From: an uncultured Eubacteriales bacterium
GTDB lineage: Bacteria; Bacillota; Clostridia; Christensenellales; UBA1242
Length of the DNA: 64,000 nucleotides
Direction of reading: 5' to 3'
NCBI GenBank assembly: GCA_900551855.1
Contig: URXM01000002.1
Span: 192,828-256,827, forward strand
The notes under the pieces were generated by a model. That model worked only from the letters and a program-made list of their open reading frames with translations. It did no database searches and had not been told where the DNA came from. Below, one piece after another: positions 2,538 through 63,720 of the stretch (positions are counted from its first letter, which is position 1; every line of letters starts with the position of its first letter). A program made the translations under genes and the position numbers.

Positions 2538-2675
2538 TATTTTTTGCTGTTTTTATTATTTTCTTTGTTAAATAAAAAAAAATAAACGAATAAAAACTAA
2601 TGTTTAATTGCTTAGTTTGGTTTAAAATACGCATTTATATATATATTAAAAATATATTATTTCTAAAAAATTTAT

Positions 2676-37624: not shown

Positions 37625-38374
37625 ATGAAAAAAATAATTATTGGAAATTTTAAAATGAACACGAAACCTAGTGAACTTAAACCTTATGCAATGTCACTTG
37701 CGACAAAAACTAAAGGTTGCAAAAACGATATTGTTATTTGTCCTCCTTACACACATTTGTCGGTGGCAAAAGAATTTTTGACAGGAAGTAATGTTGCATT
37801 TGGTGCACAAAATATTTCTGAAGAAGAAAAAGGTGCTTTCACTGGAGAGATTAGTGCAAGCATGATAAAAGACCTTGGTGCAACTTATGTAATCATTGGG
37901 CACTCTGAAAGACGCTCAAAGTTTAAAGAAACTGACAAACTTATCAATAAAAAAATAAAAACTGCCTTGGCAAATGGGCTTAAAGTCATTTTGTGTATTG
38001 GCGAAAGTTTGCAAACAAGAGAAAGCAGACAGGCTTATGCTTTTATAAAAAAACAACTTGATGACGACTTGAAAGGAATTTACGAAAACGAACTTGATGG
38101 CGTCATTATTGCATACGAGCCTATTTGGGCGATTGGAACTGGGAAAACCGCTACAAACAAAGATATAACAAAAATGGCTGATACAATCAGAAAAGAAATT
38201 GAATACCTATATTCTGAAAAAGCAGGAAAAGATGTTTCAATTGTTTATGGTGGAAGTGTAAACATCAACAATTACAAAAAGATCCTTTCAAACGAATCTA
38301 TCAATGGTGCCTTGATTGGTGGCGCTTGTCTTGATGTTGATGCATTTTCAGTTATTTGCAGAGAGAATTATTAG
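37625..38374 (+). CDS. tpiA: triose-phosphate isomerase
   Basis: IIGNFKMN, IIGHSERR, AYEPIWAIGTG and GGSV are canonical TIM motifs. The ATG at 37625 has aaggag upstream. Confidence 0.95.
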   Translation: MKKIIIGNFKMNTKPSELKPYAMSLATKTKGCKNDIVICPPYTHLSVAKEFLTGSNVAFGAQNISEEEKGAFTGEISASMIKDLGATYVIIGHSERRSKFKETDKLINKKIKTALANGLKVILCIGESLQTRESRQAYAFIKKQLDDDLKGIYENELDGVIIAYEPIWAIGTGKTATNKDITKMADTIRKEIEYLYSEKAGKDVSIVYGGSVNINNYKKILSNESINGALIGGACLDVDAFSVICRENY

Positions 38375-38389
38375 TTTTACGGAGAAAGA

Positions 38390-39493
38390 ATGAACCATAT
38401 TGCACTTTACAGAAAATACCGTCCTAAAAGTTTTGATGAGGTTATTGGACAAGACCATATTACAAAAACTCTTCAAAACCAGATAGAGAATGACCAAATT
38501 GGTCATGCTTATCTTTTTACTGGGACAAGAGGTACAGGGAAAACAAGTGTGGCAAAAATTTTTGCTAAATCTGTAAACTGCCTTAGTCCAATCCACGGCT
38601 CTGCGTGTGGTCAATGTGAAAATTGCAAGAGATTGGAACAAGAAAATGATATAAACATAATTGAAATTGATGCTGCTTCAAACAACAAGGTCGATGATAT
38701 AAGAAACATCAGGGACAAAGTCAAATTTATGCCTGTCGGTGCAAAATACAAAGTTTACATCATCGATGAAGTCCATATGTTGTCTGATAGTGCGTTTAAT
38801 GCTTTGCTTAAAACTTTGGAAGAACCTCCATCTTATGTGATTTTTATTTTGGCAACAACTGAAGTTCATAAACTTCCTCAAACAATACTTTCAAGATGTG
38901 TAAGGTTTGATTTTAGATTGGTTTCAGCAGACCTACTTGCTAAACATTTGGCAAAAATTTTTGACAATGAAAATATCAAATATGATGAAGAAAGTTTAAA
39001 GATTATTGCAAGCGCTGGGGAAGGCAGTGTAAGAGACACTTTGTCTATTGCTGATTCTATTGCTTCATATTGTCAAGGAAATATCACAAAAGAAAAAACA
39101 TTGAGTGTGCTTGGGACAACTGATCACGAACTTATTATCAATTTCTTTGACAAAATTCAAGAAAAAGATGTTGGAGCAATTTTAAGCCTGATTGACAAGA
39201 TTGAAAAAGAAGGGAAAAACTTGGCTGTCTTTTCAAAAGACTTGTCAAAGCACGCAAGAAATCTTTTAGTTTGCAAATCTTGTGAAAATGCAAACGAAAT
39301 CTTAAACTTGACAGATGATGTTTTCAACATGTATCAAGAGCAGTCCAAAAAGTTTGATGAAAAAGATTTGATTCGTTATATGCAAGTGTTCTCAAGTGCA
39401 GAAAGCGAATTGAGATATACATTGTCAGTTAGACTTTTGCTTGAGACAACTTGTCTTACGGCAATTCTTGGTTTTGATGTAAAAAAAAACTGA
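38390..39493 (+). CDS. dnaX: DNA polymerase III gamma/tau subunit, zero-frame product (367 aa, gamma-like)
   Basis: Walker A GTRGTGKT, zinc module CGQCENC, Walker B DEVHML and SRC (LSRCVRF) are all present. The frame ends ...GFDVKKN-TGA immediately after an A9 run. Confidence 0.9.
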   Translation: MNHIALYRKYRPKSFDEVIGQDHITKTLQNQIENDQIGHAYLFTGTRGTGKTSVAKIFAKSVNCLSPIHGSACGQCENCKRLEQENDINIIEIDAASNNKVDDIRNIRDKVKFMPVGAKYKVYIIDEVHMLSDSAFNALLKTLEEPPSYVIFILATTEVHKLPQTILSRCVRFDFRLVSADLLAKHLAKIFDNENIKYDEESLKIIASAGEGSVRDTLSIADSIASYCQGNITKEKTLSVLGTTDHELIINFFDKIQEKDVGAILSLIDKIEKEGKNLAVFSKDLSKHARNLLVCKSCENANEILNLTDDVFNMYQEQSKKFDEKDLIRYMQVFSSAESELRYTLSVRLLLETTCLTAILGFDVKKN

Positions 39494-39828
39494 AAATTGA
39501 AAAAGATATAACAAAACTTTCAGCAAACAATGTTTGGGGCAAAGTTGTTCTTTATTTGAAAGAGCATAAAAAAGTTGCACTGCATGTTGCTTGTGGAGAT
39601 ATCACAAATGCAAAAATTGAAGATGGGAAATTGATTATTCGCTCTAGTGATGACTTTTTGATTGATGTTTTGGAAAACGGTAGAAAGGAAATTGAAAGTG
39701 CGATAAGGTGGCAAGGTCTTGATTTGAGTTTTGTGGTTGTAAAATTTGAAAGCGATGAACAAAAAATAAACAAGGATATCAAAAAAATCGAAAATTTCTT
39801 TGGAAACAAAGTAGAGATTGAAGATTAA
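39490..39828 (+). CDS. dnaX: dnaX C-terminal (tau-like) extension in the -1 frame, reachable only by a shift in the A9 run at 39481-39489
   Basis: The -1 frame is open from 39478 to 39828. Its translation begins LKIEKDITKLSANNVWGKVVLYLKEHKKVALHVACGDITNAKIEDGKLIIRSS and continues DDFLIDVLENGRKEIESAIRWQGLDLSFVVV. That resembles the C-terminal region of Firmicute DnaX. The only candidate start is a TTG at 39556, which has no SD. Confidence 0.6.
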   Translation: MKIEKDITKLSANNVWGKVVLYLKEHKKVALHVACGDITNAKIEDGKLIIRSSDDFLIDVLENGRKEIESAIRWQGLDLSFVVVKFESDEQKINKDIKKIENFFGNKVEIED

Positions 39829-39854
39829 AACAAAAATTTAAAGGAGCAAAAAAA

Positions 39855-40169
39855 ATGGGATACGGTTTTGGTGGTTTCGGTGGCGGAAATATGCAAGCTT
39901 TGATGCGTCAAGCACAAAAGATGCAAGAAGATATGAAAAGAACTCGTGAAGAGATTGACAACACAGAATATACTTCTTCTGTCGGTGGCGGAATGATTGA
40001 AGTTTGTATGTATGGAAACAAAAAAGTTAAAAGTGTGAAAATAAAGAAAGAAGTTGTTGACCCAGATGATGTTGAAATGTTGGAAGATTTGGTAGCAAGT
40101 GCAGTGAATGATTGCTTAAACAAAATCGCCGAAGACGAGAAAAACAAATTGCCAAATTTGGGAATGTAA
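39855..40169 (+). CDS. ybaB: nucleoid-associated protein YbaB/EbfC
   Basis: GNMQALMRQAQKMQEDMKRTREEI...GGGMIEV is the YbaB pattern, and the gene sits in the conserved dnaX-ybaB-recR context. Confidence 0.9.
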   Translation: MGYGFGGFGGGNMQALMRQAQKMQEDMKRTREEIDNTEYTSSVGGGMIEVCMYGNKKVKSVKIKKEVVDPDDVEMLEDLVASAVNDCLNKIAEDEKNKLPNLGM

Positions 40170-40197
40170 TTGACTTCAAAGGGTGTTGAAGAAAAAT

Positions 40198-40791
40198 ATG
40201 AGCGAATTTGATGAACCTATTGAAAGACTGATAGAATATTTTAGAGCATTGCCTGGCGTTGGAAAGAAAACAGCACAACGCTATGCTTTTTATATTATCG
40301 AAAACGACAAATCAAAAGCAGAAAATTTTGCCAATGCTATTATTGATGTAAAAAACAAAGTCAGACTTTGCAGTGTTTGTGGAAATTACAGTTCTAGTGA
40401 AGTTTGCCCAATTTGTCAAAAAAGAAACAGACATCTCGTCTGTGTTGTTCAAGAGCCAAAAGATATAATTTCTTTGGAAAAAGCAAGAGGTTTTGACGGA
40501 GTTTACCACGTTTTGTTTGGTTGTATAAATCCTCTTGAAAACAAAGGTCCAAATGATATTCGCATAAAAGAATTGCTTGCAAGAATAAGCAAAGATGATG
40601 TCAAAGAAGTTATTATGGCGACAAACCCTGATGTTGAGGGAGAAGCAACAGCAATGTATATTGCAAAAATTTTGAAGCCTATGGGCGTTAAAGTCACTAG
40701 GCTTGCTCAAGGGATTTCAATGGGGAGTGATATAGAATTTGCAGATGAAGTGACCTTAAGCAAAGCTTTGGCTGACAGAAAAGAAATGTAA
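40198..40791 (+). CDS. recR: recombination protein RecR
   Basis: LPGVGKKTAQR (HhH), the C4 zinc finger CSVCGNYSSSEVCPIC and a Toprim region (VCVVQEPKD...ATNPDVEGEATA) are present. Confidence 0.95.
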   Translation: MSEFDEPIERLIEYFRALPGVGKKTAQRYAFYIIENDKSKAENFANAIIDVKNKVRLCSVCGNYSSSEVCPICQKRNRHLVCVVQEPKDIISLEKARGFDGVYHVLFGCINPLENKGPNDIRIKELLARISKDDVKEVIMATNPDVEGEATAMYIAKILKPMGVKVTRLAQGISMGSDIEFADEVTLSKALADRKEM

Positions 40792-40812
40792 GTGGCGATG
40801 CCACTTTTTTTA
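40791..40812 (+). terminator. intrinsic terminator after recR
   Basis: agtggc-gat-gccact followed by ttttttt. Confidence 0.6.
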
Positions 40813-42048: not shown

Positions 42049-42079
42049 AAGCAAGAATTGTTTTCTTGCTTTTTTTTTA
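42049..42079 (+). terminator. intrinsic terminator
   Basis: aagcaaga-attgtt-tcttgctt followed by T9. It lies inside the ORF-track N-terminal extension of argS, which argues for the later argS start. Confidence 0.6.
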
Positions 42080-48382: not shown

Positions 48383-51300
48383 ATGAAAGTTAAAAGACAA
48401 AATCATACAGTTGTATTTAGAGGATTGGTGCTTGTTGTAGCTTTTGCACTTGCAGTTCTTTGTATGCCTTTTAATGGCTTGGTTGCTTTGGCTCAAATGT
48501 CACAATACACTGACTATTCTTATATGACAATAGGTAAAGTTGATGAAGAAGTTTCAACTTCTGTCGTAAAGGGTAGCACATATTATATCCCAAATGCTTA
48601 CATTGGTGGAAGCAATAACTTTATTGTTGGAAAAACTCAAGACGGAGAACTTGAAAGCAATGTAACTTTGCAATCTTCAAAAGTTACTGTTCGTTATAGT
48701 TCTTTGGATTTGACAGAAATCAACAGCAGTGAAGTAACTTCAGGAGAAACTGATATTACAAACAAAGTTGTTGTGACAACAGATGAAAACAACTATGGAT
48801 ATTTTGTTGCAAGCAAAGTTGGAACATACACTGTAACATATTCTTACACTTATGAAGATACAAGCACAGGAAAATCATATACCAACTCTTACGAACTTAA
48901 AGTTGATAGTGAAATTTCAAGTGCTACAATAAGTTTTGACAGCAACGAACAAAACTTTATTCCAAGCGTAATTGATCTTGCTCTTGCAAAAGACGGAGAT
49001 AGTTATAAAAACTTGAACCTTCCATTGCCTTCAATTACTGATGAAGACGGTGAAGAAGTTGAAGATGTAAACTATGTCACAAGCAAAGATGCTGTTGGAG
49101 AAGAAGGAAGTTATGTTCTTATCTCTGTTACAGGTGGGGTTAATTCTCAAAATGTAACTGTTTCAGGTGAAGCAGGAAATTACTATATCGATGGTAGCGT
49201 TTTTGCAGATACTCAATTTGGTGCTGGAAAATATACAGTAAAATATGCATACTATCTTGATGGACAATTTGTCACATCTACAACAAAATCTACTCAAGTT
49301 TATTCAGAAGAAAACAAATATTATACAGATTACAAACTTCAACTTGAACTTGCTTCTGACTGGTCAGACAATGGACAAACTGGTGTTGAAAGCACATTGC
49401 CTGCAGCAACTGGTGTAACATCTAAAGATTCAAAACCAGCAAGTGAAAAAGTTGATGTTTACTACACAGTAAAAGCTTATTACAGCTCAACAAGTTCTTC
49501 AAAGGGATATGAACTTATCTCTGCAGAAGAATACAATCAAGACCTTAATGGAAATGAAGAAATCGACGAAGATGAAAAAGTTGTAAATGAAGATGGAACA
49601 TTGGTTAACCCATCAGCATTTAAACCTTTGAAAGATGGTTGGTATACATTTGAATATACTATTACAGACTTCTATGGAAACACAGTTTCTTCAACAAAAG
49701 GTGTTTACGAATTTGAAAACATTAAAGATGAAAAGAAACCTACTCCAATTGTTTATGATGCTTCTGTAAAAGATGAAGACAAGAAATATGAAGATGCATC
49801 TTACAAGCTTCAAAGTCGTGCTATTCCAAACAGCGTTGTTGTTTATGCTATTGGAATTGATGACAATGTATCAAAAGCTGGAGATGAGGGCGTTGTTCTT
49901 ACTCGTAAGATTATGACAGATGATACTGTTGCAAAACTTACAATCACAGACTACGCAGAATATAACTTGGTATTCAATTATAGAAATACTACTTCAAACA
50001 AAGCTTATACAAACTTGTTGACAAACAACTACCTTATCAGAAAACAAGCTGGAGAAATCAGCAGTGATGTTGAAATGCTCAACTGGCTTAAAGATAATGG
50101 ATATTTGATTGTTGTTGACAATGCAAACTATAAAACAATTTACGAAATCTTCAATGCAGAAAACTACTTTGAAGGTAAAACAGTAAACGAATCAGCTATT
50201 GATTCTGCCGATAAGGCTCTTGAATGGTTTAAGAGTGCAGAAGCTGTTACCGCAGGTTTCGCTTACATTGATGTAAATGAAACATTTGGTGCTACAACAT
50301 CAGAAAACGGAATGGGCTCTGGACAATACTACATTCACTACATCGCAAAAGATGCAGCAGGAAATGAAACAGATATAACAAAATCTATGTATGTTGGTTC
50401 TTATGAAGACAATGATGTTCCTACAATTAAGTTTGGAACAACTCTTGCAGATTCATATTTGCCAAATGCAAAAGTGACATTTGATGTTCCTACAGCTACA
50501 GACAACTATGATACAAATATGTTGGTTAAGACAATGTATCGTTATTTTGACAGCGAAGGAAATGTAATTCAAGTTAATGACAAAGACAGCAATGTTCTTT
50601 CAAACAATGACTTGGACGAACTTTGGGCTGATATTGCAAATGTTAGAGTTGACGGAAAATTGTTGACAGAAACATATGCAAAATATCATAACTCTACTTC
50701 AGAAGCTAATGATGGATATATTGATTTGACAGACGCAAGTGCATCTTCTTATTCAATAGATTTGTCAGAAGCTGGCGATAAAGCAGTAACTCTTCAAATA
50801 GTTTCTTACACATATGATGATAAAGGAAATGCAAACATCTATGGTGAAACAATAAATATTTCTAACACAGTTGACAATGCTCCTCCTCAATTTAAAGAAG
50901 GAGATATTAACACAGCAGATGGATCTTTTGTTTCAGAATATGAACAAGGACAAGAAATTGAACTTCCTACAATGACAGTTTTGGATGATGCAGTTTCATT
51001 TATGAGTTTTGAAGTTAATGTATATTACATCAACGGAGACACTCAAACAAAGGTTGCAACATATGACTATTCATCAGAAAGAGATATCTTATCTCAAAGT
51101 GGTGCAGGGAAATATACTGTTCATGCTGGAAAATTTGTTGCTTCATTTGCAGGAGAATATAGAGCAAGCATTGCAGTTAAAGATAGCAATAACAAAACTG
51201 TAGTTGCATTTGTAAACTATGATGTTAAAGCTAGATCAATCATTCAACCACCAGTTATCAGCACTTCTCTTGAAAGCAAGACTGTAGAACTTGATGGTGA

Positions 51301-52657
51301 CACAAACTATGATCCAGAAACAGGTATTGAAATACCTACTCCATCAGTAAGTTATCAAATTCCAAACAGTGTAACTTATGATGTTTATGCTGGAAATGAA
51401 GAAGATTATGCAGATGTTGATGCTGTTGTTATGGGCGTAAACGAAAACGGAAAAGCTACAAACTGGAGCACAACATACGGACAACAAAATTCATTTAAAC
51501 CAAATGCAGTTGGCGAATATCCAATTGCCTATACAGTAAATCTTACAGTTTATAACCCAAAGACATTCACATATCAAGAAATGGCTTGGGATGCTGGATC
51601 AAATTCTTACAAAGGTGGATTCTTCAATTATCAAAACCCAACAAATTCTAATAAAGCAGAAGTTGTTTTGAATAAAGATGGTTCTTATGTAGTTAACGAA
51701 ACTGGCACAAAATATACAGTTGTTAAAGATGAAGATGGTTCAGTAAAAGTTTACAACTATGATGACAATAGCATAACAATTGACGATTTCTATGGTACTG
51801 TATTTGAAGATGTAGATCTTGAAGAATGGTGCAATGATCTTGTAAATTATAATTTGACAAGTGATGTTTATACAATTATTGTTCAAGATACAGTTGGTCC
51901 AGAAATTACAGAATATGATTATGTTGATACAATTTCTACAGAAGATATTTCTGCAACAGATGGATACAATTTGAAGATTTATGGAATTGAAGCTACTGAC
52001 AAGAGTGGAATCAATGCTGATAAATCAAAGATTGTTTTGTCTTGGAAATTGGCTAATGGTGATACAGGTTCTCAAACATTCAATAAACAAATGGAAGACA
52101 CTTCTTATACAATTAAATCAAGTACAGGAAATGTATTAGACGGAACTTATACAATCACATATACAGTTTATGACAACAACAATAACTACACAACAAAAGC
52201 TTACACAATTGCAGTTGGAGACAATGTAGAACCAACTTTGACATTTGCAGATGATTTTGTTAAAGATAGTTATGAAATCGGTTCTGAACTTACAATTGAC
52301 CCAAGCAAGATTACTTTCACAGATAATAAGGCGTTCCCAGAAGGAACAAAACCTACAATTTCTCTTTTGAATACTTCTACAAGCAAAGAAGTTGAATACA
52401 AACTTGTTGGTGGAATGTATGTATTCGATTTGGACAAAATTGGAACTTATACTTTGACAGTTGAAGTATCTGATGCAGTTGGAAACACAGCAACAGAAAC
52501 ATTCAGCATCGAAGTTACAGCAAGAACTACAGATACAGTTGCTGTTTATAAGATTATCGGAACAATTTTGATTGTGATCTCTGTTCTTGTTCTTGTAGGC
52601 GTAATTGTTTACTTCATTGTTTCAAAAGTAAAACTTGATAAAGAACTTAAGAAATAA
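48383..52657 (+). CDS. large (1,424 aa) surface protein of repeated Ig-like modules, with a signal peptide and a C-terminal TM tail anchor
   Basis: The signal peptide is MKVKRQNHTVVFRGLVLVVAFALAVLCMPFNGLVALAQ. Modules end in a G-x-Y-x-(I/V)-x-Y...D-x-x-G-N signature: GTYTVTYSYTYED, GWYTFEYTITDFYGN, GQYYIHYIAKDAAGN, GTYTITYTVYDNNNN, GTYTLTVEVSDAVGN. Most module starts read D-x-x-x-P (DNDVPTI, DNAPPQF, DTVGPEI, DNVEPTL). The C-terminus is YKIIGTILIVISVLVLVGVIVYFIVSKVKLDKELKK. Confidence 0.9.
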   Translation: MKVKRQNHTVVFRGLVLVVAFALAVLCMPFNGLVALAQMSQYTDYSYMTIGKVDEEVSTSVVKGSTYYIPNAYIGGSNNFIVGKTQDGELESNVTLQSSKVTVRYSSLDLTEINSSEVTSGETDITNKVVVTTDENNYGYFVASKVGTYTVTYSYTYEDTSTGKSYTNSYELKVDSEISSATISFDSNEQNFIPSVIDLALAKDGDSYKNLNLPLPSITDEDGEEVEDVNYVTSKDAVGEEGSYVLISVTGGVNSQNVTVSGEAGNYYIDGSVFADTQFGAGKYTVKYAYYLDGQFVTSTTKSTQVYSEENKYYTDYKLQLELASDWSDNGQTGVESTLPAATGVTSKDSKPASEKVDVYYTVKAYYSSTSSSKGYELISAEEYNQDLNGNEEIDEDEKVVNEDGTLVNPSAFKPLKDGWYTFEYTITDFYGNTVSSTKGVYEFENIKDEKKPTPIVYDASVKDEDKKYEDASYKLQSRAIPNSVVVYAIGIDDNVSKAGDEGVVLTRKIMTDDTVAKLTITDYAEYNLVFNYRNTTSNKAYTNLLTNNYLIRKQAGEISSDVEMLNWLKDNGYLIVVDNANYKTIYEIFNAENYFEGKTVNESAIDSADKALEWFKSAEAVTAGFAYIDVNETFGATTSENGMGSGQYYIHYIAKDAAGNETDITKSMYVGSYEDNDVPTIKFGTTLADSYLPNAKVTFDVPTATDNYDTNMLVKTMYRYFDSEGNVIQVNDKDSNVLSNNDLDELWADIANVRVDGKLLTETYAKYHNSTSEANDGYIDLTDASASSYSIDLSEAGDKAVTLQIVSYTYDDKGNANIYGETINISNTVDNAPPQFKEGDINTADGSFVSEYEQGQEIELPTMTVLDDAVSFMSFEVNVYYINGDTQTKVATYDYSSERDILSQSGAGKYTVHAGKFVASFAGEYRASIAVKDSNNKTVVAFVNYDVKARSIIQPPVISTSLESKTVELDGDTNYDPETGIEIPTPSVSYQIPNSVTYDVYAGNEEDYADVDAVVMGVNENGKATNWSTTYGQQNSFKPNAVGEYPIAYTVNLTVYNPKTFTYQEMAWDAGSNSYKGGFFNYQNPTNSNKAEVVLNKDGSYVVNETGTKYTVVKDEDGSVKVYNYDDNSITIDDFYGTVFEDVDLEEWCNDLVNYNLTSDVYTIIVQDTVGPEITEYDYVDTISTEDISATDGYNLKIYGIEATDKSGINADKSKIVLSWKLANGDTGSQTFNKQMEDTSYTIKSSTGNVLDGTYTITYTVYDNNNNYTTKAYTIAVGDNVEPTLTFADDFVKDSYEIGSELTIDPSKITFTDNKAFPEGTKPTISLLNTSTSKEVEYKLVGGMYVFDLDKIGTYTLTVEVSDAVGNTATETFSIEVTARTTDTVAVYKIIGTILIVISVLVLVGVIVYFIVSKVKLDKELKK

Positions 52658-52667
52658 TATTAAAAAA

Positions 52668-52697
52668 AAAGACTGAAAAATATCAGTCTTTTTTTAT
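52668..52697 (+). terminator. intrinsic terminator of the 1,424-aa gene
   Basis: aaagactga-aaaata-tcagtcttt followed by a T-run. Confidence 0.65.
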
Positions 52698-52868: not shown

Positions 52869-55800
52869 TTACTTAACAGCAATTCTCTTTCTCAATTTAA
52901 TAATTATGATTATTACAACTATTGCAACAATTACTGAAATTACAATTGCTATAATTGCTGCGGCATTGAGAGGATCATTCTTAACAACTTTATAACTGAA
53001 TAACAAGTTTCCACTTGGAGAGAGTATTTGAACATAATATGTTCCTGCAGAATCAATTGTTGCAGTTGTTTCTCCAGTGCTTAAACTATTGATATCCAAA
53101 CTGTAATATAAGTAGTTTTTGTTGTCAATTTCTTTTATGATTCTTAATGTGCTTTCTCCCATTTCGCTGTAGATGTTTGCTTGGTTGAAAGTTACTGTAA
53201 TATTGCTTGTTGTTTCTGCTCCTTCAGCAATAGATATTTTTATTGGTGCAGTTCCATTTTGAATGTTTACTTGATATGTCCAGCTTGTAATTGCTGATGA
53301 ACCTTTAAACAACTTGTCGTTTGAATTGATTGTTATCATGTATGTGCCTATTCCAGTTTTTTCATCAAGATATGACAATGGAAGTTCTGTCATATATGTT
53401 TTTTGATCAACTGTTATTGTTGAAACATCCAATGTTCTCAACAAGTCTTCTGTTATATCAATTCCGTCTTTAATTACTTTTTCAACATAATAATTTGAAT
53501 ATCTGTTGTAAACATAAGAATATCTATATTCGTTTGGATTTAAAATAGTAAATTGATATTTCTCTTGTCTAATCTTTCCAACATCTGGCAAATTGCTTGT
53601 TGCTGTAAATGAAATTTCGTAATAACCAGGTTCTTCAAACAGATAGGTTGTGTCATCTTGGAAGTATTCTGTATATTCAACACCATCTTTTGTCACGCTT
53701 ATTACTGGATAACCATCAAGAGAATAGAATTCTGAACGGGTGCTCTTGTCAATATTTACAGAAACTTTTCCATTGTATATTGCTTGTTTGATTGGGAGAG
53801 ATGTTTCTTCTTCGTTTGTCACTGGGTTTGTATATGTGATTGTGAATGGAACATCTTTAAGGAATATAAATGTCAATGCTTCTGTTTGACCAGCGTTGCC
53901 TCTGTTAAACTTTTGAACATTTCCTGCATTGTCATATAATGAGATTGAATATTTGCCTGAATGGGTTAAGTAAACGTAATTGTATTCTTTTCCATTTGTT
54001 TTTCTTGTATATACCACAGGGTTCAATTCTATGCCGTCTTTTACAAGTCTGATGTTGATTTCGTTTTGTGATATACCATAATATTTTGACCATTGAAGTT
54101 CAATTCTGTTGATTGAAGAATAGTCTTCTGATATTACGATGCTCTTTGATGTAGCATTTACAAGATTTTCTGTTGTATCAATAATTCCATTCATGTTGTA
54201 TGTATAAAACTCTTCAACAAAATTGTCTGAACTTGGAATGTAGGTTATAACAATCTTTATATTGAATGGAGGAATGTTTCCTAAGTTTCCGCTTGTTGTG
54301 TTTGAAATTATCCAAAGTTCTGAAGTTACTGTTGAACTATCTACAAACACATCTGCCAAGGTTGCTGTTATTTCTTGTTCTTTATTTGTCTTTATTTGAA
54401 CAAGGTCTTTGTCTGTGTAGCTTAAATTTACGATATAGTGATTTGCATATTGTTTGCCGTCGCTTGCTGTGTAGATTGTATCACTCTTATCAACAACTGA
54501 TGTGACACCGTTTATAGTTTTTTCGATCCAATATGTTGATTTTAATGATGATAAGTTAAATTCAAATATTTGATTATATTGGCCACTGTCTGGGACATAT
54601 CCAAATACATATTCAGGTGTGCCCATTTCGTTTTTCAAATAAGTTTCATCATACCAAATCTTGAGATAATATTTTTTCATATCATCTGATTGACATTGCA
54701 ATCTTGTACCAGATGTGATTTCTGTCCAATTGACTTTGTCGGTACTGATTGAATATTTGATTGGAATGAATGTTTCTTTTTGTGAATAAATCACTCTGAT
54801 TTCTGAGAAGTATCCTGTTTCATCATTTACAAGATTGTCAATTATACTTCTTGTTATGTTGTTTCCATTTGCATCAAGTATTTTGAATTGTCCAGGCTGA
54901 TTGTTTTCATTTGTATCATTTACTTGTGGCAATTCGTTGTATAATGTGAAGTAAATTGTTTTTACAAGGTTTGTAGTTGGATCATTGTTGTTGAAATCTC
55001 TTACTAACAACGCAAAACTGTCATTGTAAACACCTGTATCATTGTTTGTTTTAACAAGGATTGTAGAAACACCTTGACTGTTTTGGGAGGTGGTTGTTGT
55101 GGCTTTTGTGAGTTCTTCTGAGATCTCTCCATCTACCAAATCGAACACTTCAACTGTGTATTTGCTTGGGTTATAGTTGTATTTTAACCCATCTTTTGTG
55201 ATGTAATACAATCTTCCACCATTTGTATCATAATAAGAGTACAAGTCTTGTTCTGAAGAAACTTCTTGTGTGATCAATGTTTCTTTATACAAATGGATTT
55301 CTTTATATGTTGTGCCATAATTGTCTGTGTATTCATATTCGATTCTTGTGTTAGTGACAAATCCTAAATTTGGATTGATTTCAAAAGTAATTGTTCCAAG
55401 AGTGTTGTCTGTTGTCACAATGATATTTGAAGTTGATTGCCATAAACTTGAGAACCCTAATTTGTTTGTTTGAGAATAAATCAATTCGTTGTTTGCCTTG
55501 ATTGAAAGTGAAGTCAAGAATGTTGAACCATAAGCTGAGCTTTGAATTGATTGATCAGTAGGTTGTGTAAATCTGATGTATTCTCTGTTTTGATCATTTG
55601 TTAGAGATGCTGTCAAACTTGTATTTCTGATATTGATATAGAAGTTTGTTGTAGATCTATTTTCTCTGTTGTAAACGCTTAAACAATTTTTATATCTCGA
55701 ACTTACACTGCCGTCAATAAGATCAGAGATTGCAATTTTTGTGTAAGTTTGTCCAACAAATGCGTAAGCATAATCTTTATCCCAAGGAGTCAACATCAAA

Positions 55801-58800
55801 TATTTTGTTGTAGTAAATCCATTTGAATTTACGGTGCTCAATTTTATTTGTGCCCATGCATCTCCAAAGAAGTTAAGATTGTTTAATGTAAATCCAGTCT
55901 TTGCATAAATGTTGTGTGTTGCATTTGTGTAAGATTGTGTCAACAAATAATCATCAATTGTGTAAGAATGTTCGATTCCGTCTGCATCTGTGTAGGTGAT
56001 TAACTTGTTGTAATCGCTACCTTCTGTGCTGTCTGGAACATAACTTGTGATGTAAATTGTGTAGATTGTCATGTTTCCAGCAAGATCAGTTTCAATAATT
56101 TCGTAATAAGTGTTTGGATTAAATTCTGTTACTGTTTCAAGATCTGTGAAGTTTGATGCCAAGAAATCTGTTGGTGCAGTTTCTTGTTCGGCATCTGTTG
56201 TGTATTTTGTATTGTTTCCTTGAGTGTCAACAAATGCTCTGATATATGTTTTGTAAACATCTCCAGAAAGAGAATTTTTCAATGTTTGCAAATATGAGTT
56301 TGCAACACTGTATGAGTAATAAGCAAATGTTCCTGTATTGTTGCTTATATTGTAGCTTGTTGTAGAAAGATCGCTGGTTTGTTCCATTTCTGCGGTGTAA
56401 TATGTTCTAAGTGATGTTGTAGACAATGTAGCAATCATATTTCCAGCAGTTGAATTGTTTACCAAGTTTTGAATGTTTGTGCTTGGTGCAGAAAGGTCAA
56501 CATAAATTCTTTTTGTCACTTTTGAATAGAATCTTGAGTCGTGATTTTTGAATTGCATTGTTATGTCAACATAGCCATTGTTTTCATAAACATTCAATTT
56601 CTTAAGGTCAAGTTGAGCAATGTATGTGTTGTTTGAAAGGGTAGGTTGTTGTGCAAATACATCATCAGTTGCTCTAAATGTTTGACCCTTGCTTGTTTTA
56701 AATATCATTTCATCAATATCTATCTCTGCCATATAGGTGCTTCCAGCATCCCAAATTAAACTTACATTTGATTGATTTGTATAATAAGTCATGCTTGGCT
56801 TTGTTTCATCTGTAGGTGCAGGAGAGGTGATTACTGAATTTAATGAAGAACCAGTTGTTGATTGAACTACAAAATCAGGATTAGATTCTTTTACTTCAAA
56901 ACTGAAAGTCAATGATTGTTGATAATTGTTATCTCCAACTTCTGTTCCAAACCTGCCTTGATAAATTGTTACATAATATGTTCCTTCTTCAGAGATATAG
57001 TCTAGTTTTGTGCCGTCGCTATATCTATAGAAGTTCAAGAATCCAGATCCATCAGAAACAATTGTGTTAAGAGTTGGATTTTTTGTGTTTGTAGAAGTTA
57101 CTGCAATTAAGTTTGATACATCTGTGTCATCTTTATAAATTTCGGCATATAATGCATATTCCTTTATAAGATTGTCTGAATAATAGTAATTGTCATTGTC
57201 AACTTTCTTATAAGAAGAATTGTTTACATAATAAGTTCCGCCATTGTAATTTACTTGAGTGCTTGTTGTGCCAATTTGAGCAACATCCAATGTTGTGTTT
57301 GTAGGTAAAATTGTTGTTGTGGCCGTGCTCAATTTTTCGTCAGAATAAAGAGTAGTATTGGTTGATGTAATGTAATAAGAACTATAATTTACTTCAAAGT
57401 CATAATTGTCTATTGCAGAGATTGGCATGTAGTAAATGGCATTTTCAAACAAAACTTTTGCATAAGTTTCTGTAGCAGATAAAATTGTGACTTTTGTTTT
57501 TGGTTGAATTGTTTTGTTGGCTTCAATAGAAAGAGCTTCATCAGTGTAAAGTTTTGTAGCAAAGTTTAAAGTTGTTGTCTTGTTTGCGTAAGTTGTGTAT
57601 TTATATTGTGGCACATATACATAAACAGGGAGCAAGTTTGTTGTCAAAACAGAACGAACTGTGCCGTTGTTGTAAATTGAAGAACCATTTGTGTTCCCTT
57701 CTGCACTGTTTGGGAAGGTCACAACAAGGCTGGCATTTGTTCCGTTGTCATACATTGACACAAACACATCTCCACCAACCAAGCTTTCAAGATGAGAACC
57801 AGATTCATCGTTTACAAGTTCGGCATTTGAAACAACTTCATTTCTGTCCACATAGAAGACATAAGTTCTTTGATAGAAGTCGTTCTCATTGTAAGAATAA
57901 CCTTCATCTGTGTAATATGTTCTTATAATTTCATATTTACCAGCAGTAGTGATGTTTTCTGAGTTCAATCTTATCTCATCTTGTTTTATAGTCGTTTGAG
58001 CTCCGTTTTCTTGGAAGTTATAAACATTGATTTCTGTCACATTGTCAGACAAAGTGTAATAATGATATGTTATATCTCCAACAGTAATTGTGTTTTCTAC
58101 ATATGGATAATATCTTATTATTACGCTGTCTACCTGGATCAACATATCTTCATTTGTGATTGTTGGGAGGAAGGACAATGTAAATGCTTTACTCATTTTT
58201 GTAGGGTTGAGATAAGTTGTTTTTGTTTTTCTTTGTTCTGATGTTGAAGTGTCGGATATTGTTCCTTCTACAACATTGTTTGATGTGATAACTTCTGTTT
58301 CGCCATCACTGTTTGTAAATTGTATGAAGAATTCCGATGAGTCAAAACTGATTATGATTGTTTGTCTAGCAGAATAGTAGTTTGTGTATTGTGTTATGTA
58401 AGTGTCATCGTAAGCCAAATCTTTTTTGGTATTTGACATATCTCTTATCAAAACACGATAGGTGTTTTCTTCATTTACAGTTATTGCTTGAGAATAAATT
58501 CCTGTTTGTGCGGTGTAGTCTGGATGGTCATTATCTATATAATATGATACTTCATTGATTGGTATTGTTATATACATTCCAGTATAACTGCTTATATAAC
58601 TTGAGACGCCATCAGTTGAAGGGGAAACAGAAACTCCGTAAGTCAAAGACTGCATATAATTTTTAGCGAACAATTTGTTGTACATTACTTTAAAGATGTC
58701 TGTGCTTGGTGTTTTTCCGTCGTAAGTTAGATAAAAATCATAATAATTTGTTCCGTCGTATTTCAAGTCATTTTCTGTGACATTGTCAGCATTGATTGTT

Positions 58801-61481
58801 GAAGTATAACTTGGTGTTTTAAAGTTTACGATATAAATTGCTTTGTTTTTAGCCCAATATAATGTTGAAGGTGTTGTCACATAGACTGAAGAGCTTGTCA
58901 ATTTATACAATTCTCCATCATTGATTGCAAAGTAAGGAGTTGTTTTGTCAATCATAAACACATCAACTGTGTGATTTCCAGCTTCATCATAAACATCTAT
59001 CAAATACAAACCTGCATCTGACAAAACATATTCTGTTGAAACACTTGTAGAAAAATCAATAGTGTTGCCTTGATATGGAAGCCAGTTGTTGTTTGTTGTT
59101 GAAAGATTGAGAAGGCTGTTTACAGGTAGATAAGAAACATCTTTTTGATAATTTAACATCTTGTCCAATGTGCCTGAAAGAACTGATTCTCTGTTGCTGT
59201 AATATTGTTCATCAATGATAGGGAAGTATCTATAATATGCATAAGTTCTTGCCCCACTAGTCTTTTCATTCCAAGAGAAAACAATGCTTTGATTTGTTGA
59301 GAAATTTGAAAGTGTAGAAACGATTTTATAATTTGTAGAATTTGTAATTTCTGTAACATTTCTAGCTGTTATGTTTTCAAGTGAGTATTTGTCTATTGTA
59401 AAAGTTTGTTCTCTGAAGAAACCTGTTTTTGAAGAGTAAAGAATGTTTGAAGATGTTATTTCATTTGTGTAATACAATCTCACTGTGTAATGAGCACTTT
59501 GCTCCAAAGTGATCACATTTTCTGTTGATTGAGCAGGGAGAAGAGAGCTAAATGAAATTCCTTGTTCTCCACCAAATCCGGTCAAATATGTGTTTCTGTT
59601 GTAATCATAAGCATAAATTTGAATTGTCACATCTTTGTTGAAAGGATCTTCTTTTGTGCTGTCAACAATGTTTACATTTTCGTTTACATATGTGTCTGAT
59701 GGAACATTTTTGTTCCCTGTTGTTGTCACAACTTCAATTGTTGGTAAATCTTTTACAATTTCAAAATAGAACACTTGATAAAATACTGTGTTTGCAGAAA
59801 GGGTAGTTTCTGTAAGATAATAGTTATCAAAAGTATAACCAACTATGTAGATGTATTTTCCGGCAGCACTGTCTGTAAGTCCAGTAAATGCTGTTCTGTA
59901 AAGAGTTTCTTCTCCGAGTTTTCCGTTGTTGTAAACAGAATATGCACTTGAAACCTTTGTTGTTGAGAAAATGTAGCTGTTTACAGTTGTTGAAAGTTTG
60001 GCATTTACAGAAAGTTTAATAGGTGTTTGATTTGTTTTTACAGGAGTAATATTGTTTGAATTTATATAATTTAAAACATTAACAATGTTGAATGTTGTGT
60101 TTCCTGTTGATTGAGAGTAGTTTCCATTTGATGCCAAGAATGAACTTGTGATATCGGCACTGTTTGTGAAGTTTCCGTTTTCAAAGTCGTATTCTTTAAG
60201 TTCGCTTATTTGTCTGATGTTGTTTTCATCTGTAGGCTTGTCAAGGTCAGTGTAATTTGCTTGATAACCATACATGTAAACCATTATTTTTTTTGTTGCT
60301 CCAGTGACACCATTCAAAGAATATTTTTTGATTTCAGTGGTTTCTGGGGTGGTAGAGTAGTTTACAATTTGAATTGCACTTAAAGTGAGTTCATAGTTTC
60401 CTACATCAGTGAAGTAAACACGGCAAGTATTGTTGTTTGTGTTGATTTTTATGTTTACTATATCATCTCCACTCATAAGCACTGGTGATTCAGATGCTGG
60501 GTCTTTGTCATAAAGAAGACTGGTTGTGTAAGTTGTGTTTGAGATTGATTTACTTATGGCAAGTTCAAATTTTGTGTAATCATATTCTACATAAGGAATC
60601 TTGTTTGCAGAATCTTCTGAAGAATAGTTGCTGTAGAGATAATAAGCATAGTTGAGATTTGTTAAACTTGAAACAGCAACTTCATGGTCAAAGGCTGTAT
60701 AGGTAATGTTAGGTCTGTTGTTTAAGAAGTAAGATTCTTGATCAACAACATAGAAGCTATAATTGATTGTCACATTTTGATCTGAGAAGACTTCTTCTGT
60801 TGTTGCAGTACCACCATCAGTGCAGGTGTAAAGTGTCAAAGACAAGGACAAGTTGTAAATCCCTTCAATGACTTCTCCTGCTTGGTTTGTGATGGCAATT
60901 TCGTTGCTTTCAAGACCTGCTTCTCCATTGCTTGGAAGAGGTTTGAAAGTCATTTCAAATTGTTCAAGTTGAGCAGAGGCATTGTTTGAAAAAGAGAATC
61001 CGCTTGATTGAATATAGTTTCCCATATCAATATCTTTATAAGCGCCATTGACATAAAGGCTTATAGAATTGATGCTGTAATAATAGAAAACTGTAGTGTC
61101 AGTCAAGTCTGGATAATAAACATAGTTGTATATATCATTTTGAGGCTTAAGTTCTGATCCGTTTGTCAAAAGTGATAAGGTCAAGTAGTTTGAACTTGTC
61201 CCTTCTTTGAAAAACATAAATGTGTCAGAAGAAATAAGACTGTTTGGATTTTCGTAGTCGGTGCTTTCTCCTTCTTCATCTTCTGTTCCGTCAGTTATGT
61301 ATTCTCGTGCAGAGAAATAAGAAGGAATATTTTGATTGTCTATTTCTTCTTGTGAAACATCTTCTGCAAGAGCAAAGTTTTTGATGTTGTCCTTGTTTGA
61401 TAGCATTATGCCAAAGCTTATAAAGCATATAGCAAAAAATATGTAGAAAATACTTTTTACCAAATTATTTTTCTTTTCCAT
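52869..61481 (-). CDS. giant (2,870 aa) surface protein with a signal peptide and a C-terminal TM tail anchor
   Basis: This is an 8,613-nt uninterrupted ORF. The N-terminus is MEKKNNLVKSIFYIFFAICFISFGIMLS...FALAED. D-x-A-G-N module ends occur: YLIDVYDEAGNHTV, YEIIETDLAGNMTI, YSISLYDNAGNVQK. The C-terminus is AAAIIAIVISVIVAIVVIIIIIKLRKRIAVK. Confidence 0.9.
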   Translation of the reverse strand: MEKKNNLVKSIFYIFFAICFISFGIMLSNKDNIKNFALAEDVSQEEIDNQNIPSYFSAREYITDGTEDEEGESTDYENPNSLISSDTFMFFKEGTSSNYLTLSLLTNGSELKPQNDIYNYVYYPDLTDTTVFYYYSINSISLYVNGAYKDIDMGNYIQSSGFSFSNNASAQLEQFEMTFKPLPSNGEAGLESNEIAITNQAGEVIEGIYNLSLSLTLYTCTDGGTATTEEVFSDQNVTINYSFYVVDQESYFLNNRPNITYTAFDHEVAVSSLTNLNYAYYLYSNYSSEDSANKIPYVEYDYTKFELAISKSISNTTYTTSLLYDKDPASESPVLMSGDDIVNIKINTNNNTCRVYFTDVGNYELTLSAIQIVNYSTTPETTEIKKYSLNGVTGATKKIMVYMYGYQANYTDLDKPTDENNIRQISELKEYDFENGNFTNSADITSSFLASNGNYSQSTGNTTFNIVNVLNYINSNNITPVKTNQTPIKLSVNAKLSTTVNSYIFSTTKVSSAYSVYNNGKLGEETLYRTAFTGLTDSAAGKYIYIVGYTFDNYYLTETTLSANTVFYQVFYFEIVKDLPTIEVVTTTGNKNVPSDTYVNENVNIVDSTKEDPFNKDVTIQIYAYDYNRNTYLTGFGGEQGISFSSLLPAQSTENVITLEQSAHYTVRLYYTNEITSSNILYSSKTGFFREQTFTIDKYSLENITARNVTEITNSTNYKIVSTLSNFSTNQSIVFSWNEKTSGARTYAYYRYFPIIDEQYYSNRESVLSGTLDKMLNYQKDVSYLPVNSLLNLSTTNNNWLPYQGNTIDFSTSVSTEYVLSDAGLYLIDVYDEAGNHTVDVFMIDKTTPYFAINDGELYKLTSSSVYVTTPSTLYWAKNKAIYIVNFKTPSYTSTINADNVTENDLKYDGTNYYDFYLTYDGKTPSTDIFKVMYNKLFAKNYMQSLTYGVSVSPSTDGVSSYISSYTGMYITIPINEVSYYIDNDHPDYTAQTGIYSQAITVNEENTYRVLIRDMSNTKKDLAYDDTYITQYTNYYSARQTIIISFDSSEFFIQFTNSDGETEVITSNNVVEGTISDTSTSEQRKTKTTYLNPTKMSKAFTLSFLPTITNEDMLIQVDSVIIRYYPYVENTITVGDITYHYYTLSDNVTEINVYNFQENGAQTTIKQDEIRLNSENITTAGKYEIIRTYYTDEGYSYNENDFYQRTYVFYVDRNEVVSNAELVNDESGSHLESLVGGDVFVSMYDNGTNASLVVTFPNSAEGNTNGSSIYNNGTVRSVLTTNLLPVYVYVPQYKYTTYANKTTTLNFATKLYTDEALSIEANKTIQPKTKVTILSATETYAKVLFENAIYYMPISAIDNYDFEVNYSSYYITSTNTTLYSDEKLSTATTTILPTNTTLDVAQIGTTSTQVNYNGGTYYVNNSSYKKVDNDNYYYSDNLIKEYALYAEIYKDDTDVSNLIAVTSTNTKNPTLNTIVSDGSGFLNFYRYSDGTKLDYISEEGTYYVTIYQGRFGTEVGDNNYQQSLTFSFEVKESNPDFVVQSTTGSSLNSVITSPAPTDETKPSMTYYTNQSNVSLIWDAGSTYMAEIDIDEMIFKTSKGQTFRATDDVFAQQPTLSNNTYIAQLDLKKLNVYENNGYVDITMQFKNHDSRFYSKVTKRIYVDLSAPSTNIQNLVNNSTAGNMIATLSTTSLRTYYTAEMEQTSDLSTTSYNISNNTGTFAYYSYSVANSYLQTLKNSLSGDVYKTYIRAFVDTQGNNTKYTTDAEQETAPTDFLASNFTDLETVTEFNPNTYYEIIETDLAGNMTIYTIYITSYVPDSTEGSDYNKLITYTDADGIEHSYTIDDYLLTQSYTNATHNIYAKTGFTLNNLNFFGDAWAQIKLSTVNSNGFTTTKYLMLTPWDKDYAYAFVGQTYTKIAISDLIDGSVSSRYKNCLSVYNRENRSTTNFYINIRNTSLTASLTNDQNREYIRFTQPTDQSIQSSAYGSTFLTSLSIKANNELIYSQTNKLGFSSLWQSTSNIIVTTDNTLGTITFEINPNLGFVTNTRIEYEYTDNYGTTYKEIHLYKETLITQEVSSEQDLYSYYDTNGGRLYYITKDGLKYNYNPSKYTVEVFDLVDGEISEELTKATTTTSQNSQGVSTILVKTNNDTGVYNDSFALLVRDFNNNDPTTNLVKTIYFTLYNELPQVNDTNENNQPGQFKILDANGNNITRSIIDNLVNDETGYFSEIRVIYSQKETFIPIKYSISTDKVNWTEITSGTRLQCQSDDMKKYYLKIWYDETYLKNEMGTPEYVFGYVPDSGQYNQIFEFNLSSLKSTYWIEKTINGVTSVVDKSDTIYTASDGKQYANHYIVNLSYTDKDLVQIKTNKEQEITATLADVFVDSSTVTSELWIISNTTSGNLGNIPPFNIKIVITYIPSSDNFVEEFYTYNMNGIIDTTENLVNATSKSIVISEDYSSINRIELQWSKYYGISQNEINIRLVKDGIELNPVVYTRKTNGKEYNYVYLTHSGKYSISLYDNAGNVQKFNRGNAGQTEALTFIFLKDVPFTITYTNPVTNEEETSLPIKQAIYNGKVSVNIDKSTRSEFYSLDGYPVISVTKDGVEYTEYFQDDTTYLFEEPGYYEISFTATSNLPDVGKIRQEKYQFTILNPNEYRYSYVYNRYSNYYVEKVIKDGIDITEDLLRTLDVSTITVDQKTYMTELPLSYLDEKTGIGTYMITINSNDKLFKGSSAITSWTYQVNIQNGTAPIKISIAEGAETTSNITVTFNQANIYSEMGESTLRIIKEIDNKNYLYYSLDINSLSTGETTATIDSAGTYYVQILSPSGNLLFSYKVVKNDPLNAAAIIAIVISVIVAIVVIIIIIKLRKRIAVK

Positions 61482-63508: not shown

Positions 63509-63720
63509 ATTGCAAACTTGTTTGATTTTCTTAAAAAATTTTTTGTTGATTTAAAGAAATTTTTACTAAAAATAAAAAAAATATAAAATTTTTAAAAAAT
63601 TTTTTTAAGAAATTTTGGCCATTTTTGGGCTATTTTTGCGAACACACGGCAAGACGCCTAGGGGTAAAAAAAATTTTAAAAAAAAAGTTGAAAATTTTTA
63701 AAATTTTTTTGAAAAAAGTG

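Follow-up and report, generated by a model that had tools for sequence, protein, structure and literature searches.

A strictly conserved A9 run at the gamma/tau boundary of dnaX in gut Clostridia, a probable site of recoding for tau

Why does a dnaX gene stop at a run of nine adenines while the remainder of its coding sequence stands open in another frame? The short gamma form of DnaX has come about in at least three ways, namely through ribosomal frameshifting, through transcriptional slippage and through proteolysis, and its function is still debated. The question is raised by a stretch of 64,000 nucleotides (nt) from an uncultured Eubacteriales bacterium, called here the window, with an overall guanine-plus-cytosine (GC) content of 32.5%, in which dnaX is divided into two open reading frames (ORFs) that meet at an A9 run. 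An earlier note on this DNA had proposed a programmed -1 shift or slippage in the run, with a gamma-like product by default and tau after recoding. That core reading has held up well, as the run proved invariant and the second ORF proved to be both selected and homologous to DnaX. We conclude from the comparisons below that the A9 run at the end of domain III is very probably a genuine, selected recoding site.

The zero frame of dnaX (ORF1; 38390-39493, plus strand) encodes a gamma-like protein of 367 amino acids (aa) that ends in GFDVKKN and carries clamp-loader domains I-III only. The Pfam matches of ORF1 are DNA_pol3_delta2 (E 4e-50), DNAX_ATPase_lid and DNA_pol3_gamma3, the last of these being domain III at residues 232-357. 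Since domain III ends at residue 357, the break coincides with the point where E. coli and Thermus divide gamma from tau. The junction reads GGT TTT GAT GTA AAA AAA AAC TGA in the zero frame, where the run (39481-39489, on the plus strand as are all elements of the junction) is made up of the wobble A of GTA, two AAA codons and the AA of AAC; in the -1 frame the same nine bases read AAA AAA AAA. The base directly 3' of the run is a C (39490), and the zero-frame TGA (39491-39493) ends the gamma-like product one codon past the run. As read from the sequence, the -1 frame is closed by a TGA directly upstream of the run (39475-39477). It is then open as ORF2 (39478-39828, with the TAA stop at 39826-39828), which would supply the C-terminal extension specific to tau, with about 112 codons past the run. 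The third frame reaches a TGA at 39498-39500 (ACT GAA AAT TGA), which would end the products of mRNAs carrying eight or eleven As. Because the -1 frame is shut just upstream and the zero frame just downstream, a frame change of 1 nt must fall within the run; in relatives the open span of the -1 frame before an invariant Trp is typically just ~17-40 codons. One added A fuses ORF1 and ORF2 into a 479-aa protein with the junction DVKKKLKIEKD. The positions of the run and the stop, the 367-aa length, the extent of the -1 frame and the 479-aa fusion given in the earlier note all match the sequence.

Is the length of the run maintained? Conservation of A9 plus a stop in related genomes had been singled out beforehand as the arrangement to look for, and it was found throughout. 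A scan of GTDB with one genome per species returned 36 loci, 35 of which cover the junction. These metagenome-assembled genomes (MAGs) come from human, rabbit, deer, mouse and chicken gut and are labelled Clostridia bacterium or Candidatus Caccovivens sp.; further labels, assigned by guess, are Christensenella, Catabacter and Lachnospiraceae. A metagenome scan seeded with the C-terminal domain added 38 loci, of which 36 cover the junction. All 35 junction-covering species representatives have exactly A9, then C, then a stop, with 240-nt flanks that are 75-88% identical, and the run is exactly A9 in 36 of 36 junction-covering metagenome loci as well. It is kept in lineages whose DnaX is only 56-57% identical to that of the window in the N-terminal part and 38-43% in the C-terminal part, and the metagenome loci that bear it range from 30 to 47% GC. 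Altogether the arrangement of A9, C and stop was found again in 67 distinct junction sequences of independent assemblies, a recurrence far beyond chance.

The same constancy is seen within the species. At least seven contigs in ENA and Logan assemblies encode the identical 367-aa product, and five independent same-species contigs have exactly A9; one of the same-species contigs equals the window sequence, and the other full-length loci retain A9 among 56-89 substitutions per 7.1 kb. In these strains an intergenic A8 about 360 nt away (39848-39855) appears as A8, A7, A6 or a run interrupted by G, and a T-run near 40805 after recR (T7/T8) also differs, whereas the A9 of dnaX is constant. Homopolymers therefore drift where they are unconstrained and the dnaX run stays steady, which indicates that its length is held and is not an error.

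The second reading frame is conserved as firmly as the run. The -1 frame is intact in 36 of 36 species, and the fused proteins are 476-479 aa long. The number of synonymous substitutions per site (dS) relative to the window exceeds 1, so that synonymous sites are saturated, and the ratio of nonsynonymous to synonymous substitution rates (dN/dS) is 0.02-0.12 for ORF2 and 0.03-0.07 for ORF1, the most distant genome excepted (0.24 for ORF2 and 0.16 for ORF1). These values point to purifying selection on ORF2 as strong as that on ORF1. The hidden Markov model (HMM) searches of the -1 frame that the earlier note had recommended gave a divided answer. On its own, ORF2 had no Pfam family match except two at chance level (E <= 1) and no useful family match in NCBIfam and PDB sequence searches, and a word-indexed protein search with it returned members of the clade only. 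PF12170, the Pfam model of tau domain V, was absent among its matches, the presence of that model in the library copy being unchecked. The fused protein, in contrast, scored 509.6 bits against the NCBIfam gamma/tau equivalog NF004046 (cutoff 400) and 455.6 bits against TIGR02397 (cutoff 250), and aligned with the NCBIfam DnaX models end to end (1-472 of 488 and 5-478 of 474 positions).

An ORF2-family profile, run locally against 150 distant single-ORF DnaX proteins (Z=150), connected the -1 frame to DnaX directly. Its HMM positions 1-98 match the extreme C-terminus of about 45 of the 150, with E-values down to 3e-12, and the matched single-ORF proteins are 488-687 aa long; the similarity to DnaX C-termini on which the earlier note had made its proposal depend is therefore present. 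An outgroup DnaX of 507 aa (L086) is an ordinary single ORF with a longer linker and no A-run. The AlphaFold2 model of ORF2 is a small alpha/beta domain with a predicted local distance difference test score of 75.8 (86-91 in the core). In Foldseek its best matches were DnaA domain I and DciA, with the C-terminus of E. coli tau weaker and all E-values above 0.001, which hints at a fold of the DnaA-domain-I, DciA or tau-C type.

What, then, is constrained at the nucleotide level? In the codon alignment of the 36 species the run contributes three Lys codons, and every one of their 108 instances is AAA, whereas every one of the 31 other conserved Lys columns of dnaX has some AAG (22.6% overall). 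The codon before the run varies among Val, Ala, Ser and Leu, and its third base is always A; GTA is the rarest Val codon in dnaX, yet the final A before the run is kept. The base 3' of the run is C in 67 of the 67 distinct junctions, even where the codon is CGA in place of CTN, and Leu368 is the sole column among 43 conserved Leu columns without a TTR codon. The zero-frame stop is the next codon in 62 of the 67 junctions and two codons later in the other five. In lineages where CTG has become CTA it shifts from TGA to TAA and is still a stop. The third-frame stop lies at the third codon in 51 of 67 junctions and within ten codons in all 67, against a background rate of off-frame stops of 5-8% per codon. 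In the near clade this stop relies on Ile370 being ATT, which it is in 35 of 35 sequences, while none of 24 other conserved Ile columns is all-ATT; in divergent lineages the residues are different and the third-frame stop persists (ATT AGT giving TAG, AAT AAC giving TAA). Taken at the codon level, the nine As, the C that follows and the stops in both non-tau frames are kept by synonymous constraint. The site and both reading frames are thus conserved and constrained.

How would the ORF2 frame be reached? In the mechanism that we favour, ordinary transcription and translation would yield the 367-aa gamma-like clamp-loader subunit, ending at the stop one codon past the run. Some RNA polymerase would slip on the T9 template and add one A (A10, possibly A13 too), and normal translation of the A10 mRNAs would then enter the ORF2 frame to give the 479-aa tau-like protein, the C-terminal domain of which is the one that binds the replicative polymerase in other bacteria. 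The mRNAs with A8 or A11 would be read into the third frame, meet a stop after three codons and again give a gamma-like protein. We regard programmed recoding of this kind, with the gamma-like form as the default and tau from one extra A, as fairly probable, and transcriptional slippage as somewhat more probably than not the main route to tau. That the slip would take place at transcription and not on the ribosome is suggested by four features, the last of which, the in-frame A10 and A11 variants of sister lineages, is taken up below. First, constraint extends to every one of the nine As, even to the wobble A of a codon that otherwise varies, and AAG never occurs at the third Lys. Second, stops are kept in both non-tau frames, which matters only if all three frames are populated, as they are in Thermus. 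Third, no conserved RNA structure or Shine-Dalgarno-like element accompanies the site: RNAalifold found no conserved pairs between -30 and +75 in 33 species, the single-sequence fold of the window junction had a z-score of -1.25, and no conserved upstream Shine-Dalgarno-like stimulator was seen, a Shine-Dalgarno-like 4-5-mer within 22 nt upstream being present in just 5 of 62 junctions. A weak hairpin after the slip site (ctgaaa with tttcag), proposed in the earlier note, did not survive the same analysis; the complementary bases are present, but they lie outside the predicted fold and the pairing is not conserved.

Several points weigh against slippage. The heterogeneity in mRNA length, the two DnaX proteins and their ratio are all predicted from the sequence. 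According to a caution in Baranov et al. 2005, the polymerases of AT-rich genomes may be resistant to slippage at 9-mers, which bears on the window with its 32.5% GC. If tau is essential as it is in E. coli, a minority product of slippage would have to suffice. A simple slippage model also leaves the invariant C after the run unaccounted for. One idea gives that C a part: tau would be a rationed slippage product, RNA polymerase would set and possibly regulate the ratio of tau to gamma, and a wait for cytidine triphosphate (CTP) at the C would tie the fraction of A10 mRNAs to the nucleotide pool. We consider this idea quite doubtful.

The remaining point against slippage also speaks for its closest rival, programmed -1 ribosomal frameshifting on the A9 mRNA, as in E. 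coli with the roles of the products swapped. In the zero frame the run holds perfect X_XXY_YYZ heptamers, and A_AAA_AAA and A_AAA_AAC are -1 ribosomal slip heptamers too, so that both routes can yield the same protein. Atkins et al. 2016 treat dnaX of reversed polarity as ribosomal frameshifting, for instance in Chlorobium phaeobacteroides with its A7 run, and the conservation of the site and of ORF2 fits a ribosomal shift equally well. Nevertheless, a heptamer requires seven bases and nine As are fixed here, with AAG at the third Lys in 0 of 67 junctions against the 22.6% found elsewhere. Both A_AAA_AAA and A_AAA_AAC are far weaker than A_AAA_AAG in E. coli (PMC5009743), a conserved downstream structure and a regular upstream Shine-Dalgarno-like motif are both missing in the comparisons given above, and the kept third-frame stop would serve no role. 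We therefore judge ribosomal frameshifting as the sole explanation to be possible and rather unlikely; it could also act together with slippage.

Could the gene instead be truly split? Two separate polypeptides would be made, and past the TGA ribosomes would re-initiate on ORF2 at a nearby ATT, ATG, TTG or CTG, the A-rich leader helping. Gene callers do list ORF2 on its own, as a hypothetical protein of 90-125 aa, and the third codon past the run can often serve as a start, being ATT in the near clade and ATG or TTG in some other lineages. In the window, the TTG at 39556 is the sole canonical start codon of ORF2, as the earlier note had said. However, ORF2 has no conserved start of its own, the start-capable codons being scattered across the 64 distinct junctions compared; 31 of the 64 have no ATG, GTG or TTG ahead of the invariant Trp, and a Shine-Dalgarno-like motif for an ORF2 start was found in only one. 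A promoter scan of 38200-40300 gave nothing convincing inside the gene, with nine matches against 6.5 expected by chance. The frames moreover meet exactly at the run, the invariant Trp follows it at a constant distance of 14-16 codons, one A fuses the frames in natural variants, and strict nucleotide conservation of A9 would be purposeless in a split gene. Separate translation of this kind seems very improbable to us. With its dN/dS values, the lack of a conserved start or Shine-Dalgarno motif, the profile match to DnaX C-termini and the NF004046 score of the fused protein, ORF2 is to all appearances translated as part of DnaX.

The natural variants come from sister lineages, in which rare in-frame A10 and A11 forms of dnaX are found (L043-L047, L087 and L088). 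One A10 form occurs on three contigs, two of which derive from different Joint Genome Institute samples. A further A10 (L088:1595-1604, P0083) and an A11 (L087:1606-1616, P0097; CAA AAA AAA AAA TTG) are each on one Logan contig only and would be natural alleles of switched polarity. In the A10 and A11 forms the tau layout is in the templated frame, and a single extra A amounts to a seamless natural fusion. The variants suggest that either polarity is viable, as would be expected if either template yields both products, and they fit a remark in Atkins et al. 2016 (PMC5009743), by which the change of a single nucleotide can make the two products trade roles where efficiency is near 50%.

The same variants could be read as signs of a contingency locus at the DNA level, in which replication slippage flips A9 and A10 and tau is made in A10 cells only, or of a decaying ORF2. 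The A10 and A11 forms do lie within or beside A9 lineages; the fused P0092 shares its junction peptide with an A9 locus (L062), and P0093 lies near the A9 loci L052-54. On the other side, the consensus is A9 in every species representative and metagenome locus, which indicates that most cells are A9, and ORF2 is under strong purifying selection with no disruptions in 36 species. The A9 consensus and the selection on ORF2 together exclude decay and imply that A9 cells themselves use ORF2, and we hold this whole alternative to be very improbable. That the split is an artefact, either a homopolymer or assembly error over a true A10, as the earlier note had allowed, or a TGA that is read as an amino acid, is scarcely credible: homopolymers are error-prone and some pipelines read the TGA here as Trp (373-aa and 389-aa calls with KKNWKLK), but A9 stands in ~70 independent assemblies from differing studies, hosts and assemblers, which refutes the error, and long conserved genes of the window are uninterrupted under code 11. 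An alternative genetic code was considered and rejected, as TGA read as sense adds just six codons before a TAA and the conserved frame is the -1 frame.

With transcriptional slippage in A9 mRNA synthesis as the preferred reading, how does the locus compare with the known dnaX systems? The nearest precedents are the 17 unannotated two-ORF dnaX genes from 12 genera for which Antonov et al. 2013 (NAR 41:6514, PMC3711429) found that recoding is required for tau. Twelve of these have poly-A (nine A10 and one each of A9, A8 and A7). By name, the text and Supplementary Fig. S3 mention Chlorobium, Chloroherpeton, Prosthecochloris, Pelodictyon, Flavobacterium, Cytophaga, Capnocytophaga and Coraliomargarita. 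The mechanism inferred there was transcriptional realignment, and two-ORF dnaX was later reviewed by Atkins et al. 2016 (PMC5009743). The gene of the window is like these cases in its poly-A split at the gamma/tau boundary, its short zero frame, its tau in the -1 frame and its lack of public annotation; the same position and direction of the frame change recur across taxa here too (35 species MAGs and 36 metagenome loci). The earlier note had stressed the opposite polarity of this layout. The layout is real, but as a kind it is not new after Antonov et al. 2013; it is the lineage that appears to be new. Their cases belong to Chlorobi, Bacteroidetes and Verrucomicrobia and mostly have A10 followed by G, with a stop a few codons on, whereas the present ones belong to Bacillota/Clostridia and have a strict A9, an invariant C and a stop that is usually the next codon. 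The evidence of conservation also goes much deeper here, with more than 60 distinct junctions, stops constrained in both alternative frames, and A9, A10 and A11 variants. No Firmicute case of dnaX that needs recoding for tau was present among the taxa named by Antonov et al. 2013 or turned up in searches of the literature, and according to reviews tau is the only product of dnaX in B. subtilis, S. aureus and S. pyogenes.

Thermus thermophilus offers the closest parallel in mechanism. Slippage on A9 in its dnaX is experimentally demonstrated (Larsen et al. 2000 PNAS 97:1683; Yurieva et al. 1997, as summarised in PMC1088944 and PMC5009743), and through a mixed mRNA population one gene gives both tau and gamma; in the window such a mix, and the slippage itself, are what we infer from sequence. 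Both genes have A9 in the sense strand, that is at least about nine As at the gamma/tau boundary, and nearby stops in both non-tau frames. They differ in that the templated A9 encodes tau in Thermus and slippage leads to gamma, whereas here the templated A9 encodes the gamma-like form and slippage would lead to tau. In E. coli, dnaX uses a -1 ribosomal frameshift on A_AAA_AAG with an upstream Shine-Dalgarno element and a downstream stem-loop, and tau is in the zero frame (PMC5009743). The present site is like it in position (the end of domain III), in its Lys- and A-rich tract and in the stop right after the shift site, and unlike it in that the heptamer ending in G, the Shine-Dalgarno element and the hairpin are all unconserved. 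The A_AAA_AAG heptamer is absent from all 67 junctions, each of which has A9 followed by C and no G within or after the run.

Poly(A) disruptions in endosymbionts are usually seen as tolerated damage in decaying genomes. As outlined for Buchnera and Blochmannia in PMC5009743 and PMC3017870, the disruption is retained and polymerase infidelity restores the frame, and the window gene would be like them in both respects. It is unlike them in that its short product is a recognised functional form, gamma, and its flanking stops are under selection, which points to a two-product design. We therefore take dnaX of this clade to be a further case of a known type of recoding in a new phylum, with its own signature of a strict A9, an invariant C and an adjacent stop.

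The case has consequences for annotation. Among public MAG records, dozens show a truncated 'DNA polymerase III subunit gamma/tau' beside a 'hypothetical protein'; such pairs should be joined as one recoded gene, and quality scoring of MAGs should treat the dnaX split neither as a pseudogene nor as a mark of poor assembly. The DnaX calls of 373 and 389 aa are P0005, P0013, P0015, P0017, P0025, P0081, P0085, P0089 and P0094. In the four that were aligned (P0005, P0025, P0081 and P0089) the TGA that follows the run is rendered as Trp, which suggests that some pipelines gave code 4 to these low-GC contigs; if so, other genes on those contigs may be mis-extended. On a related contig a single call of 626 aa (P0086) joins triose-phosphate isomerase (PF00121) and DnaX domains, which suggests a read-through or lost stop between tpiA and dnaX, or a mis-assigned code.

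The gene order around dnaX in the window is dus-pgk-tpiA-dnaX-ybaB-recR. On one same-species contig (L001:1094-2187, ERZ16268129; near 36853 of the window) pgk is in two ORFs of 177 and 187 aa with a 73-bp deletion relative to the window, to be explained either by an artefact of assembly or by a lesion of that strain in a glycolytic gene. The variable A8 at 39848-39855 sits between the Shine-Dalgarno sequence (GGAG) and the ATG of ybaB, and the altered spacing could affect ybaB translation. The remaining A or T runs of at least nine in the window (2574-2582, 42070-42078, 52662-52670 and 63678-63686) are all intergenic, and no gene of the window besides dnaX is split at a homopolymer. The confinement of 9-mers to intergenic DNA fits selection against them within the genes of this genome, in a small sample. 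The T9 at 42070 precedes the start of argS as called in relatives, and the A9 at 52662-52670 comes directly after a long ORF (48383-52657, plus strand, ~1,424 aa), which is followed by another at 52869-61481 (minus strand, ~2,870 aa). No tRNA genes were found in the window.

What would such a gene mean for the replisome? A dnaX that makes gamma by default and tau by slippage in widespread gut Clostridia would represent an independent origin of this arrangement in a new phylum, and its A9, A10 and A11 variants offer a comparative system for what sets the ratio of tau to gamma. Should the CTP pause at the invariant C be true, the composition of the replisome would be linked to nucleotide supply. 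If gamma is indeed made, this would be the first Bacillota lineage shown to make it, contradicting the tau-only view of Gram-positive replisomes.

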